Shown here piece after piece: positions 46,900 to 54,513 of a DNA stretch of 64,000 bases. Position 1 is the stretch's first letter. The number at the start of each line of letters is the position of its first letter. The stretch is taken from IMG/VR virus record IMGVR_UViG_3300045988_137804, positions 1 to 64,000 of that record; one strand, given 5' to 3'. The DNA comes from a virus. Below the pieces are notes generated by a model that did not search any database, was not told the DNA's origin, and was given only the letters and a program-made list of their open reading frames with translations. A program made the position numbers and the translations under genes.

Positions 46900-48618
46900 T
46901 TATCCTATTGTTACAGTAGTACCAGAGCTATTTGACTCTTCCTTATACGGAATCGCACTTACTGATACGTTATCTTTCATGACCTTACCGCTTGTACTAA
47001 GTGACTGTGTGGTAGCTGACGGAGTTACACTATATGAGCCTGAATAAGTCTCTGGAAGTTTAGCGATAATTGCTTTAAGAATTGAAGTCACATCTGAGCC
47101 ATAAGATGAGAGAGAAGATAAGTCTCCCAGTTTTGTATTGATTTCTGATTCTGTGTAATAACGATCATCGTGCGTATGACTTGAAGCTGCTTTTCCATTA
47201 AGAGCGGTAGTAATTGTACTCTGTGTCATAGTACCATCTGTTGCAGTACCCGTACCTGTATAAAGTTTTGTAAGACCTGCTGTTGATGTTGTTCCTGTAC
47301 TGTAAGTAGTATTTGTAGGAACTACCCATGTACCATCTCCACGTAAAAATGATGCTTGTTTTCCAGCCGCAGGAGCCGGAACTAAACCTGCTTTTCCAGC
47401 AGCACTTGCTGTAGCGGCAGTCATATTGCTATAAGTTGTATTATTATCCGGTGGAACAGTCCAAGTTCCATCCTCTCTAAGATATTTTGTAGTACCTGCT
47501 GTTGTAGATGGAGCAGGTACAAGACCAGCCTTTGCTCCAGAACCAGACTTAACAAAATTTGAATATGTTGTGTTGTTATCTGCTCCCCAAACAGCAGTAC
47601 CATCCGCTGACCATCTAAGAATTTGCCCAGAAGACCCTCCGGATGGAATATGTTTATTTCCAGATGTTGTTGGGTGAGTATATACTGTATCTGTGAATTT
47701 TGCCCCGGATGGAACATCTGCATTAACTGTATGATTATTTACTTTTGATGCATTTGTTGCAGTTGAAGCATTTCCACTTAAAGCACCTTTAAAGGTTGTT
47801 GCTCTGATTGTTCCAGAAGACGGCTGAACAGACAATCCAGCACTTGAGAAAACTTGATCCGTAACAGTTGTTGGCGAGAATCCTTCTGTAGCACTATTTG
47901 AAGCACCCCAAACCAATGATCTCCAGTTTGTATAATCTGAATCTTTTACAGCTGCCTGTGTTACCTTTGTGTCCGTATTCGTATCACTTCCAGGAATACC
48001 TAATCCTGTAATATCTGCCTTTGTAACAGCAGTAGCAGCACTAACATGTCCTGTTGCATCAACTGTAACTTTGTAAAGTCCAGAAGATTTTGCTGTGTAA
48101 CTTGGATGGGTATAAACTGTATTATTATCAGTTAATTCGATAGTTGTGTTCCCAGATTGGTTCATAGTAAAAGTCCCTTTACTAGTGCCATTTTGTTTGA
48201 CAGTCACTGTACCATTACCAACTGACGGTATTGTAGCAGAACTATAAGCAAGAGAACCAAGTCCAAGCCATGATTTCAATGCGTCTTTACTGACATCCTT
48301 GATTTTTGCAATATTTGAACCACCGTCTCCGCCTGTATATCCTGCAATGAATTTAATGTTATCTCCTGTAATTCCACTTCCGCTATAACCAATCTTAATA
48401 TTTTTTGATGTATTTCCATAATCGACTACAGTAGTAGCCGAATCCGCACTTGTTGCTTTAGTCGCAGTATCTGCATTTCCCTGTAATTTTCCAATAAATG
48501 TTGGAGCTGTAACTGAGTCGCTTACATATAATTTTGACAAAAGCCTCGAAACTCCCGTTACGATTAGATTGCTTAACTGAGCCAAGTTAACTCCTCCTTT
48601 CGTATATTTAAAAATCAA
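46900..48618 (-). CDS. tail fibre protein
   Basis: Shares modules with 54527-57607 (VYTHPSYTAKSSGLYKVTVDATGHVS; GLTKLYTGTGTATDGTMTQ; SSHTHDDRYYTESEINTKL). His-x-His fibre-type motifs. Confidence 0.65.
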   Translation of the reverse strand: MIFKYTKGGVNLAQLSNLIVTGVSRLLSKLYVSDSVTAPTFIGKLQGNADTATKATSADSATTVVDYGNTSKNIKIGYSGSGITGDNIKFIAGYTGGDGGSNIAKIKDVSKDALKSWLGLGSLAYSSATIPSVGNGTVTVKQNGTSKGTFTMNQSGNTTIELTDNNTVYTHPSYTAKSSGLYKVTVDATGHVSAATAVTKADITGLGIPGSDTNTDTKVTQAAVKDSDYTNWRSLVWGASNSATEGFSPTTVTDQVFSSAGLSVQPSSGTIRATTFKGALSGNASTATNASKVNNHTVNADVPSGAKFTDTVYTHPTTSGNKHIPSGGSSGQILRWSADGTAVWGADNNTTYSNFVKSGSGAKAGLVPAPSTTAGTTKYLREDGTWTVPPDNNTTYSNMTAATASAAGKAGLVPAPAAGKQASFLRGDGTWVVPTNTTYSTGTTSTAGLTKLYTGTGTATDGTMTQSTITTALNGKAASSHTHDDRYYTESEINTKLGDLSSLSSYGSDVTSILKAIIAKLPETYSGSYSVTPSATTQSLSTSGKVMKDNVSVSAIPYKEESNSSGTTVTIG

Positions 48619-49295
48619 TATTCGATAAAGTCATCGAACTCTATTTTGTTTTCGTATATCTTGTTTGAATTTGGGATAGAATAAATCCCGTGAATTTGAT
48701 CATTATAAGACGGTCTATAAATTTCTGTTCCTTCATGGATTCTAAGACCTGTAAATAAAATGTATCCTTGTGTAAACGTATTTTCCAAATTTGGGTTTGG
48801 GTAAAACATAATATAAATCTTTCCATCATCTGCATTTGATCTAAATTTTGCCCAAACCAATATCACTTTTCCTTTTGTAGTGTCTACAATACTCCACGAG
48901 TTACCGTTTGTATTATATTTTTCTGTATACGAACAACCATGTTCTAAATGTAATCGAAAATCCGCATCACAATCCTCAGAAACATAAGCGTACATGCTTA
49001 CTGTGAAATCTCCATTTTTTATTCTTTCTTTTTGCCAATCGAGAATATAAGAGTAAACCATGAATCGTTTTGTATTATTCCAATATTTTCGTTTCTCCTC
49101 TGATACGGGATTAATTTTTTTACAAGTATCAAATCCATAAGGAAGAAAAATATCCGTCTTATAGTTAGATTCACAGGTACAATTACTATTTGCTATATTT
49201 TGTTTTCCTAAATATAAATTTTGCGGGGGGGGGGTAACAGAATAGTTTACATCAATTATCCCATTTTCATTAAGTTGCGTCATTCTATCCTCCAA
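48615..49295 (-). CDS. hypothetical fibre-locus protein carrying a C10 tract at codons 21-24
   Basis: 226-aa ORF overlapping the next gene's start by 4 nt. C-terminus ...FDDFIEY like its neighbours. Confidence 0.55.
   Translation of the reverse strand: MEDRMTQLNENGIIDVNYSVTPPPQNLYLGKQNIANSNCTCESNYKTDIFLPYGFDTCKKINPVSEEKRKYWNNTKRFMVYSYILDWQKERIKNGDFTVSMYAYVSEDCDADFRLHLEHGCSYTEKYNTNGNSWSIVDTTKGKVILVWAKFRSNADDGKIYIMFYPNPNLENTFTQGYILFTGLRIHEGTEIYRPSYNDQIHGIYSIPNSNKIYENKIEFDDFIEY
49225..49234. repeat. G10/C10 homopolymer inside the 5' end of the 48615-49295 gene
   Basis: gcGGGGGGGGGGta counted directly. Encodes TPPPQ on the coding strand. Confidence 0.95.
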
Positions 49296-49313
49296 AAATC
49301 CATTTAAATAAGG

Positions 49314-52612: not shown

Positions 52613-52629
52613 TTTTTTTTTTTTTTTTT
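52613..52629. repeat. T17 (A17 on the coding strand) homopolymer between the two LamG paralogs
   Basis: 17 consecutive T counted (52613-52629). Lies 37 nt upstream of the ATG of the 50767-52575 gene. Confidence 0.95.
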
Positions 52630-52659
52630 GAATAATTTCTTCGCATCTCGTTCATTTTC

Positions 52660-54513
52660 CTACATCTCCTTAAATTCACCCTGAGTCATTAATGTTCCAG
52701 TATTCGTAAGTGACACTGGCGTATTGTATAATTCTTTTATATCTTGATCCGATAGAGCAGTAGCATACATTCTGAAATCTGATATAGAATAATCAGAAGT
52801 GGAAGAGCTGTCCTCACTATAACAATTACCAATACGATGTAATGCATGTGCTGATGCATACTCGGTATCTATATTGCTGTGTGTAACAGTTTTTCTCAAC
52901 ACGCCATTTAAATAATATTTGGCTGTATGTGTTTCTAAATCCCATGTGATTGTGAACATATTCCATACATTTAAATTAACATCAAACGTACATGTATTAC
53001 TGCAACAATCCATTGTAATAGCTTGTGCCCCTGTAGAACCAATTATAATAAAATCATATTTGTTTCCTGTCCAGTTATAACCATTTGCAAAAAATAGATA
53101 AGTTCTCCATGTATTGCTAGTTGAATGTCTATTAATCCAGAGATTTGCTGTTCCCTGAGACATATTTTCAAATGAAAAATTCGGTGTAATTATTCCTGTT
53201 TGCGCACCATTTAATAGTTTGCATGAACCATCATATCTTGGAGCATCGTTGTTATATGAAATATAATCTTTATTATACATTGTTCCATGATTCCCATAAC
53301 CACTTGTATCATAAACAATTCCATCATTCCAAGCACCATTACTTATAGGAGTATCAACATCACATTCTGATACTTGCACATCTTTAAGGTCAAAATCAAA
53401 TGAAAAAGTTGCGTCTTTAGTAGCCATAGCACTTGTATAAAATTCTAAGATTGGGTTAGTTTTATAAGTTGTTCCAGATCTATCTGATGTTTCTTCAAGT
53501 TGGATAATTAAATGATGTTCTCGCCATTTACCATCAGCCAAACTTGACGAGCAGACTGTTGAATTTTTAGGTCTAGCCCAGTCATTATCCATTCTACTTG
53601 CTCTTAATTCAAAAGATACATTAGAAGTACATGTATTGCATCTAGTCTTACAACTATAATCATATTTCTTTCCTGCCGTGAAATTAAATACTGGAAAGCT
53701 AATTGACTTCCAACTATTTGTTCCAGTACCTGTATATGTATATTTATAATTATATCCACGTTCATCTGTTAGCTTTGTACATGTTATATCATTTACACCA
53801 CCATTGGCTCTTCCTTCAAAGAAATCTCCGGAATATTTATTAATAGAAGCAGTAGGATACGGATCGTTTAAAGGATAGTGACAGATCATACCTTTTGCTA
53901 ATTCTTTAATTTCGCGTGGTGATAGGGCGTTGTCGTAGATGCGGATGTCTGACATATAAGATTGATACATCATATCGCCTTTAATTCTAGAGCCAATTGT
54001 AATTGATTTGTTTGAACCCCAAATATCAGACAAGTTATTAACCTTTGTTTTTTCTACTATTAAAGAACCATTAACATAAAATTTTCTACTTGTTCCATCA
54101 ATTATAAATGCAATATGATGCCATTTGTCATTTGACAAATTAAAAAGACATGTATTTCCACCAATTAAACCTTTTGAGTCTGAAAACCAATAGTAACCAG
54201 TCGTCGTATTTACTTCTAACCGATTATCATATTCGCCTATTGCAAATATATCTGACCATGCTCTAGGTGTCTTTGGTTTTACCCATAATGCAATAGTCAA
54301 TTCTTCTGAGTCATATTCCCACGGGACTCTTAAACAATAATCTCCCATAGATATACTCTTACCAAATTTATCATCTATATACGAAGGACTTGATGATGCT
54401 GTAATATTCATCGTACCAAGTCCATGATTTTCTAAGTTGTTCTGTGTGTTTAACCACACTTGTAAAGCCAATAAAGACCACTCCCTTTCTTTGAAAAAAG
54501 GAGCAGAATTCAT
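52660..54513 (-). CDS. double LamG/concanavalin-like lectin-domain protein, paralog B
   Basis: Same architecture and C-terminus ([14 protein letters not shown]) as paralog A. Start moved to the ATG at 54513 (AAGGAG upstream), which avoids the overlap with the preceding fibre gene. Confidence 0.65.
   Translation of the reverse strand: [617 protein letters not shown]

Follow-up and report, generated by a model that had tools for sequence, protein, structure and literature searches.

What holds together a set of adjacent phage genes whose products have unrelated bodies and the same few residues at their ends? We addressed this question for a locus on the minus strand of a 64,000-nt stretch of viral DNA (positions 1 to 64,000 of IMG/VR record IMGVR_UViG_3300045988_137804; the whole stretch is called the window here), in which genes between 48.6 and 54.5 kb begin with a KNGN motif and end with (D/E)F(I/K)E. 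A sequence-only reading had described them as seven fibre-locus genes whose conserved termini mark interchangeable modules docking onto a common adaptor. The seven open reading frames (ORFs) turned out to be six genes: two LamG stem genes (products of 617 and 602 aa, LamG617 and LamG602), one 81-aa remnant, and three genes for small proteins that we call heads (186, 217, and 222 aa; p186, p217, and p222). The termini appear to be copies of one connector of about 16 residues. We give about even chances to the view that a single modular tail (receptor-binding) protein has here been split into separate genes and expanded, with the connectors as its putative assembly elements.

An apparently single connector motif recurs at the module ends

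The shared protein ends were real and non-random. When all 64 kb were translated in six frames, [DE]F[IK]E appeared five times, four of them as the penultimate residues of genes at 48.6-54.5 kb (GEFKEM*, GEFIEQ*, ADFIEF*, and DDFIEY*), and KNGN[IV] appeared four times; three of the KNGN[IV] copies occupy residues 4-9 in genes that follow one another directly. The N-terminal KNGN extends as KNGNVTGTEMYE and KNGNIKKENIYE, and in the related locus L014 the same small protein begins SITKQGIVKASAFSE and finishes SIFKNSIKASEFIEF. A form of about 16 residues, hxhxKxGxhxxxEhhE, covers both ends, and the N- and C-terminal motifs, previously taken for two separate tags, appear to be one connector that marks each module boundary. 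Its copies are named A at the stem end, B at the head start, and C at the head end.

The conservation of the motif was examined in the wider family. Among 164 family members, glutamate stood at position -2 in 134, isoleucine at -3 in 98, and F, L, or I at -4 in 135. A position-specific scoring matrix (PSSM) built from the C-terminal 16 residues of 120 family representatives gave its best locus-wide score (17.4) at residues 2-17 of p186, above the maximum of 200 shuffles (15.1). The N-terminal form M.I.KNG.I.. was found on four consecutive genes of the window, p222 being the fourth carrier because it starts MTQLNENGII (MTQ[LF]NKNGII in relatives). DNA repeats were rejected as the basis of the motif, with only short microhomologies found besides the two LamG 3' ends; the B-coding segments have only about 14 nt in common (AAAAATGGAAATAT). 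A Shine-Dalgarno overlap as the cause of the acidic C-termini was also rejected, as it holds only for p186 (..ATT GAG GAG GTG TAA carries the site of the next gene) and not for ADFIEF or DDFIEY. The WTEF and VVEF endings that had been listed as similar (63472-63837 and a gene ending near 63859) represent a different motif on a different upstream gene set, kept in orthologues of a distant phage (L011: ..VWQEF*, ..RVVEF*).

Most relatives carry stem and head in one chain

A profile search with the 217-aa head against 1.84 billion representatives returned 772 proteins (clusters at 50% identity). Intact p217 has stand-alone homologues from 89% down to 32% identity with both termini kept (M.INKNG.I....F and ..I.A.DFIE.), and the termini were also kept among the best 150 of the 772 cluster representatives. 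In these 150, the head formed the C-terminus of a larger protein in 98 cases (mostly 750-850 aa), lay between two LamG domains in 30, and stood alone in 15. At least 64 of the 98 proteins with a C-terminal head begin with the LamG N-terminus of the family. All 15 stand-alone heads had the motif at the end, and 14 of the 15 had motif B (M.I.KNG.I..) at the start.

The motif is not confined to termini, as had been supposed, since most relatives fuse the modules in one chain of about 800 aa, in which connectors A and B form a tandem between stem and head. This junction consists of an A copy, a spacer of 2-6 aa, and ISITKTGIVKGSNISE-..KYD..Y.EPDGS.W.., and the protein ends ..K.G.h.A.EFIEx*. The end of LamG602 aligned to the internal A copy, and the genes of the window phage are cut exactly between A and B, within the 2-6-residue spacer; each head thus has a gene of its own, and these genes follow the stem genes closely. 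In a comparison with about 200 relatives, both LamG602 and LamG617 showed the stem signature of the family, namely the start M[SA]LxhWLPLxG (with which all the LamG proteins begin), the order LamG - middle - LamG, and connector A (..LYxxxxxhDxxGxhxxxEhxE).

p186 was homologous to the C-terminal ~160 residues (~630-790) of 64 LamG proteins of ~800 aa (phmmer, E 1e-22 to 1e-17), and a reciprocal hidden Markov model (HMM) of these fused heads, which are preceded by the same A + B tandem, matched p186 at E 3e-30. Judged by this homology, there is a second fused head type, and p186 is its stand-alone copy. Its status as an orphan, suggested by a word-index search that gave only relatives of at least 95% identity, was rejected when local phmmer and HMM searches against the LamG relatives found the fused homologues. 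A body homologous to a fused C-terminal domain, together with connectors B and C, was thus found in p217 and p186; p222 has both motifs and a body without detectable homologue. The bodies behind the motifs (LamG, a fibrinogen-like fold, the p186-type domain, and p222, the last without detectable relatives) are unrelated, in agreement with the sequence-only reading. The comparisons showed a family architecture of a LamG - middle - LamG stem and an exchangeable C-terminal head (fibrinogen-like, p186-type, or others) with a connector at each boundary, and these modules are encoded separately in the window phage.

Gene order places the head behind the LamG stem

Ten loci with a stand-alone head of the fibrinogen-related domain (FReD) type were examined (L009, L011-L014, L016, L018, L019 by match, L024, and the L006 lineage). 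In all ten, an A-ended LamG gene lay just upstream and was directly followed by a motif-B gene, usually with an overlap of 1-4 nt or a gap of 1-11 nt; in L009, the motif-B gene after LamG encodes a 351-aa head, and the FReD head comes next. The usual order was a fibre gene (ending ..NKC[IV][DN]F[TV]F[NS]*), LamG, head, and a further fibre gene (starting AQLSNLIVTGVSRLL..), and the fused form occupied the same locus position in L017. The fibre end ..Y[ND]sTNKC[IV][DN]F[TV]F[NS]* was found directly upstream of LamG in 8 of 8 loci (54527-54580 in the window, at the end of the 1026-aa fibre; L009, L011-L013, L016-L018), and, with the LamG start, it may constitute another conserved pairing of an end with a start along this assembly line. 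A programmed frameshift or read-through joining stem and head was rejected: no slippery heptamer was present, and by inspection the ATGA-type overlaps are ordinary translational coupling.

Because of the gene order and the fusions, the head N-terminus probably has as its partner the connector that ends the LamG protein of the preceding gene. Of the docking modules originally proposed, the conserved tags and the interchangeability of the modules stand; for a common adaptor on the large fibre proteins no evidence was found, the gene order and fusions pointing to the LamG C-terminal connector.

Structural models of the heads and connectors

The AlphaFold2 model of the stand-alone head P0003 (14-sequence alignment) had a core at residues 19-195 with predicted local distance difference test (pLDDT) values of 74-93, residues 1-18 and 196-216 being below 50. 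The natural fusion P0167 (815 aa, 30 sequences) was modeled with four confident domains, and the A + B junction (578-614) and the C end (793-815) had pLDDT values of 27-29. As a whole, the P0167 model was similar to receptor-binding proteins with several LamG domains, among them neurexin and the Hc fragment of clostridial neurotoxin. The 217-aa head showed the fold of the fibrinogen C-terminal domain. It had no Pfam family at E <= 1 and no PDB sequence match, and is therefore called FReD-like in fold only and not a FReD member; its identity to lectins with fibrinogen-related domains (ficolins, angiopoietin-like proteins, intelectins) was only 6-11%. The connectors are strongly conserved yet unfolded in these monomer models, which suggests that they are oligomeric or docking elements.

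The array varies by cassette gain or loss and by homopolymer indels

As had been proposed, the array is cassette-like, and it varies in two ways: by gain or loss of a LamG cassette, with one junction in a motif-coding repeat, and by indels in homopolymer tracts that leave heads broken or intact depending on the relative. Compared with L006, the window carries an extra 1.9-kb cassette with LamG602. L006 matched the window up to 52671 and resumed at 50838, the overlap of about 60 nt encoding the motif A segment, so that the junction lies inside the motif-A-coding repeat. The two A-coding repeats of the window were 67% identical over 81 nt. Synonymous divergence was 0.09-0.38 in the cassette region versus 0.03-0.04 in the flanking fibre genes. 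The ratio of non-synonymous to synonymous changes (pN/pS) was 0.21-0.35 for every head (p186 0.31, p222 0.24-0.30), similar to that of LamG617 (0.26 against L006), from which it follows that the heads, including those now broken in one genome, have been under purifying selection.

The C10 tract of p222 is the sole G/C run of at least 7 nt in the 64 kb, whose GC content is ~33%. C10, which leaves the 222-aa frame intact, was found in four long contigs and in L004 (L001 and L020 are included), and C9, which truncates p222, in six contigs from at least four samples (including L002, L003, L021, L022, and L023) with flanks 99.96% identical. The C tract is interrupted and p222 out of frame in L006/L007. 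Pattern scans of viral contigs and of Joint Genome Institute (JGI) metagenome contigs found no further tract variants. The poly-A tract of p217 (49675-49696; 10830-10850 in L006) was also an indel hot spot: L006 has A10 and an open frame, L004 has A9 and a shifted frame, the window, L002, and L003 have a 7-nt deletion, and P0003 has an in-frame length variant. As a result of these combinations, p186 was on in the window, L004, L006, and L002/L003, p217 was on in L006 and off in the other three, and p222 was on in the window and L004 and off in L006 and L002/L003.

A long, composition-unexpected homopolymer in frame and frame-switching length variants between near-identical genomes (the C9 contigs being of low coverage) are features of a phase-variable locus, and by analogy the on/off pattern of the heads would fit slippage-driven switching. 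The features of switching by an invertase or a diversity-generating retroelement (Mu Gin, P1 Cin, BPP-1) were not seen: the cassettes all lie on one strand, and no inverted repeat exceeded 24 nt or 88% complementarity. Tandem repeats were not detected, and apart from a TnsB/TniB/TniQ trio at a distance of 4 kb there are no recombinase-like genes nearby.

A separate observation concerns the fibre gene downstream of p222. In the C9 contig L022 (718-2188), it was called as two proteins of 233 and 338 aa instead of one of 561 aa, and this fibre may be frameshifted in some variants.

Gene models of the locus

The features of the locus are listed in Table 1. For the gene models, the window was compared with the close relatives L002-L007, which are 94-99.96% identical to it. 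Both stem proteins matched the Pfam family Laminin_G_3 (PF13385; gathering cut-off 27.6) in two stretches, LamG617 with 117 bits (E 8e-34) and LamG602 with 101 bits (E 7e-29), and were 25% identical to each other (BLASTP 8.5e-39). LamG617 fell in PHROG families of "virion structural protein", and matches to the "tail protein" and "baseplate wedge" families also occurred in the locus. LamG617 may start at TTG 54471 instead of ATG 54513, because the sequence there matches the family N-terminus (MALQVWLPLNG); the N-terminus of LamG602 is MSLMIHLPLNG. The A17 tract in the spacer between the LamG genes was A18 in the near-identical contig L001, and the independent contigs L002 and L003 terminate inside it. 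The tract may act as a promoter spacer of variable length, or the assembly may merely have broken there, at the cassette junction.

Table 1. Positions of genes, connector copies, and homopolymer tracts in the window.
Feature	Position	Strand	Description
LamG617, stem gene 1	52660..54513	-	LamG - middle domain - LamG; 617 aa
Connector motif A, LamG617 C-terminus	52663..52713	-	within a ~80-nt stretch (52660-52740) repeated at 50767-50847
A17 tract (T17 on + strand)	52613..52629	.	in the 84-nt LamG617-LamG602 spacer; lies 38 nt before the start codon of LamG602
LamG602, stem gene 2	50767..52575	-	602 aa; LamG617 paralogue; whole cassette missing in L006
Connector motif A, LamG602 C-terminus	50770..50820	-	aligns with internal ..PISVANTGACLSEQFTEG.. 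of fused relatives
81-aa ORF	50525..50770	-	GTG start, overlaps LamG602 stop; deletion remnant of a ~351-aa head gene
p186 head gene	49963..50523	-	starts with motif B (SIYKNGNVTGTEMYEH), ends ..DKIVAIQIEEV; intact in every relative examined
p217 head gene	49314..49960	-	starts MNICKNGNILATAF, ends ..FNESGISSADFIEF*; fibrinogen-like lectin fold
p222 head gene	48615..49283	-	starts MTQLNENGIID, ends ..KIEFDDFIEY*
C10 tract (G10 on + strand) in p222	49225..49234	-	encodes TPPPQ; C10 open frame, C9 truncation

The 81-aa remnant retains motif B (INKNGNIKKENIYE), a fragment of a middle-type domain (residues 19-67 match the start of the LamG-type middle domain; HMM, E 4e-9), and the C-terminal ..GNLNYRKAVV. 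Its intact 351-aa counterpart lies at the same position in L009 (L009:8944-9999), with the first ~19 and last ~14 residues in common (MIGKNGIIDMVNLYEFDAM...NHCRKVVI); between the window and L006, the core of the ORF differs and both ends are kept. The end of p186 is a weak variant of the C-terminal motif. The ORFs of 92 aa (49682-49960) and 131 aa (49314-49709) are one 217-aa gene split by the 7-nt deletion in the poly-A tract, the gene being intact in L006/L007 and P0003. The gene first called with 226 aa has its true start at ATG 49283, behind a GGAGGA Shine-Dalgarno site, and a length of 222 aa. The small genes of the locus had no significant match in Pfam or PHROGs, and no relatives of the p222 body were found outside the phage lineage with Pfam, PHROG, phmmer, two domain HMMs, or a viral-contig scan.

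Genome, host, and neighbouring genes

The source genome belongs to a member of the Caudoviricetes, is 160-209 kb long, and has been assembled repeatedly from human gut metagenomes; contig ERZ1748977 NODE_6 is identical to the window across the locus. A megablast search of 44-64 kb against 50,697 phage records gave no match. The plus-strand half of the window holds the replication module (DNA polymerase, helicases, ligase, and NrdD), and from 44.4 kb on the minus strand carries an endolysin (Amidase_2 with choline-binding repeats) and then a long tail-fibre block. The host is probably a Firmicute of the gut, given the GC content (~33%), the strong GGAGG-type ribosome-binding site before nearly every gene, and the choline-binding repeats of the endolysin. 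In a scan of genome collections, the sole match of the head family was L019 (JAGHSX010000089.1), a 10-kb contig binned to a Bacteroidales metagenome-assembled genome. The host that this match would indicate was not trusted, as it conflicts with the Firmicute-like signals of the window (the GGAGG sites and the endolysin), and L019 is probably a mis-binned phage contig.

A Tn7/Tn5053-like trio, consisting of a TnsB-like transposase (Mu-transpos_C), a TniB ATPase, and TniQ, lies at 39853-44318 (+) between the replication module and the endolysin. L006 has the trio at the same position but with a shorter TniQ (337 aa). Neither a CRISPR array nor a tandem repeat was found near the trio. Upstream are a HNH/NUMOD4 homing-endonuclease gene at 38148-38855 (+) and, at 32386-35730 (+), an ORF of 1114 aa similar to the anaerobic ribonucleotide reductase NrdD, whose profile match falls in two stretches (the best within residues 762-1106), which suggests an insertion or a fusion.

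Discussion

If the locus is a split and expanded modular tail protein, the connectors would fold only in an oligomer or on a partner, possibly as short trimeric beta-structured necks. Separately made heads would attach to the A-ended LamG stems and perhaps also to each other's C ends, and the virion would carry several different glycan-binding heads. The conserved motif-coding DNA would double as a recombination junction for cassette gain and loss, and homopolymer slippage would turn individual heads on or off between phage subpopulations. A "snap-on" combinatorial system is also conceivable, in which separate lectin heads attach to common LamG stems, and possibly chain together, through a universal connector of about 16 residues that folds on assembly, and in which C10/A10 slippage toggles heads and shifts glycan specificities within a lineage; we regard it as a tentative possibility.

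Several observations weigh against the split tail protein. The ungapped PSSM backs a single motif clearly only for the p186 N-terminus; the other copies score no higher than shuffled sequences can, as their loops vary in length and the matrix admits no gaps. AlphaFold2 did not pair A with B even within the one chain of P0167, and covariation analysis (mutual information with average product correction) of 110 non-redundant junctions gave no A-B ladder, its signal being dominated by the split of the two head classes. In the window, LamG617 precedes LamG602 and not a head, and LamG602 precedes a remnant, so a stoichiometric stem-head pairing is not obvious there. With regard to switching, all C9 contigs have low coverage (1.6-4.4x), and some C9 calls could be sequencing or assembly errors; the broken heads could equally reflect relaxed selection.

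That last point leads to the decay explanation, according to which a formerly fused gene has broken down into small ORFs without function, whose shared ends are merely inherited. The 81-aa remnant, the frameshifted 217-aa gene, the variable truncation of p222, and the lack of p222 relatives outside the lineage are what decay would leave behind. However, all heads had a low pN/pS, even those that are broken in one of the pair of genomes compared, p186 was intact in all contigs, and at least ten distant loci and 15 of the best 150 representatives retain stand-alone heads carrying both motifs; we regard decay as very improbable. We consider it rather unlikely that the connector matters mainly as DNA, the small genes being a reservoir of spare, often silent heads that recombination joins to or removes from the LamG stem while the functional protein is always fused, similar to pilS/pilE-type or tail-fibre module shuffling. 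Such a reservoir would account for the LamG602 cassette, present in the window and missing in L006 with its junction inside the ~60-80-nt motif-A repeat, for the replaced core of the 81-aa ORF between conserved ends, for the coexistence of fused and split forms in the family, for the frequency of broken heads among natural variants, and for a synonymous divergence of the cassette region that exceeds that of the flanking fibre genes 3-10x. Against it, the short common segment of the B-coding DNA and the 67% identity of the A repeats over 81 nt make a poor substrate for frequent homologous recombination, and neither an invertase nor long inverted repeats were found. Moreover, each stand-alone head is provided with a start codon and a Shine-Dalgarno site placed exactly at the motif, many distant phages keep such heads intact and under purifying selection, and the motif is kept in the protein at 32% identity, where DNA homology is gone.

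The common adaptor of the sequence-only reading is the remaining alternative. The termini would then be tags that dock each small protein independently on the large fibres (1026, 880, 579 or 572 aa), giving a branched apparatus of the KP32 or CBA120 kind. Short conserved termini on unrelated bodies and motifs that are unfolded in monomer models agree with this arrangement, as do the nearly invariant glutamate one residue from the C-terminus (134/164), which fits a C-terminal peg in a pocket, and the conserved C-terminus of the fibre just upstream of every LamG gene. In most family members, however, the supposed tags A and B are internal and a covalent fusion links head and LamG stem, which makes a separate adaptor unnecessary; the gene-order link is from LamG to head and not from fibre to head, and scans of the fibre genes with Pfam and PHROG showed no homologue of a T4 gp10-like branching domain. 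We therefore judge the common adaptor to be quite unlikely and retain the split tail protein as the working explanation.

The family is numerous, with 772 clusters at 50% identity for one head type alone and many members on contigs of 100-480 kb, and its heads, widespread and unstudied, have no Pfam or PHROG family, solved structure, or source annotation. LamG-stem/head proteins are probably a major class of gut-phage receptor-binding proteins. The boundary recognisable in sequence (..EhhE | ..KxG..) shows annotators where the stem ends and the head starts, explains many "orphan" genes of ~200 aa beside LamG genes, and offers natural cut points for head swapping in host-range engineering. Should the snap-on arrangement be true, hundreds of phage tail proteins that are still uncharacterised would share this connector as a natural plug-and-play junction.

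Comparison with known systems

The closest known principle is that of the Klebsiella podophages KP32, KP34, and K11, in which the receptor-binding protein (RBP) RBP1 has a branching domain and RBP2 a conserved docking peptide (PMC6872550; experimentally validated, PMC13352976). Both systems have short conserved N-terminal peptides on unrelated receptor-binding bodies, adjacent genes, and modules that can be exchanged to alter host range. Unlike in the Klebsiella phages, the partner proposed here is a connector of ~16 residues at the C-terminus of the LamG stem and not a T4 gp10-like domain, for which Pfam and PHROG scans of the LamG and fibre proteins gave no match. The same connector also ends each head, most relatives fuse stem and head, the bodies are lectin-type domains where those of Klebsiella phages are depolymerases, and docking is only proposed. 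If the connectors mediate non-covalent assembly, the locus would represent a Gram-positive, lectin-based counterpart of the branched RBP systems used to engineer Klebsiella phages.

In Campylobacter phages, receptor-binding genes are described as carrying hypermutable polyG tracts (Sorensen et al. 2021, Cell Rep 35:109214, as cited in PMC10877375). The likeness lies in a G/C homopolymer inside a putative receptor-binding gene, where a change in length switches the frame between genomes; the differences are the phage group and host (here probably a gut Firmicute), the presence here of one C10 tract and an indel-prone A10, and a comparison that here is between genomes only. If the C tract truly switches, hypermutable receptor-binding genes would extend from Campylobacter phages to phages of gut Firmicutes.

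The long tail fibre of T4 (gp34-gp35-gp36-gp37) is likewise a multi-protein structure assembled sequentially from consecutive genes, with the chaperones gp57A and gp38 required, and fission and fusion of fibre genes between related phages are common. The locus shares with it consecutive genes for proteins thought to join head to tail; it differs in lacking sequence similarity, in joining globular lectin domains by one repeated short motif, and in that no dedicated chaperones were identified. The Gram-positive siphophages TP901-1 and Tuc2009 have baseplates (BppU/BppL/BppA) with accessory carbohydrate-binding modules (CBMs). Their attachment modules are folded domains, whereas the motifs here have 16 residues, and Pfam and PHROG scans showed no homology between the two. 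The arrangement itself would be alike: several lectin- or CBM-like proteins joined through conserved N-terminal parts to a scaffold protein encoded upstream, a role proposed here for the LamG stem.

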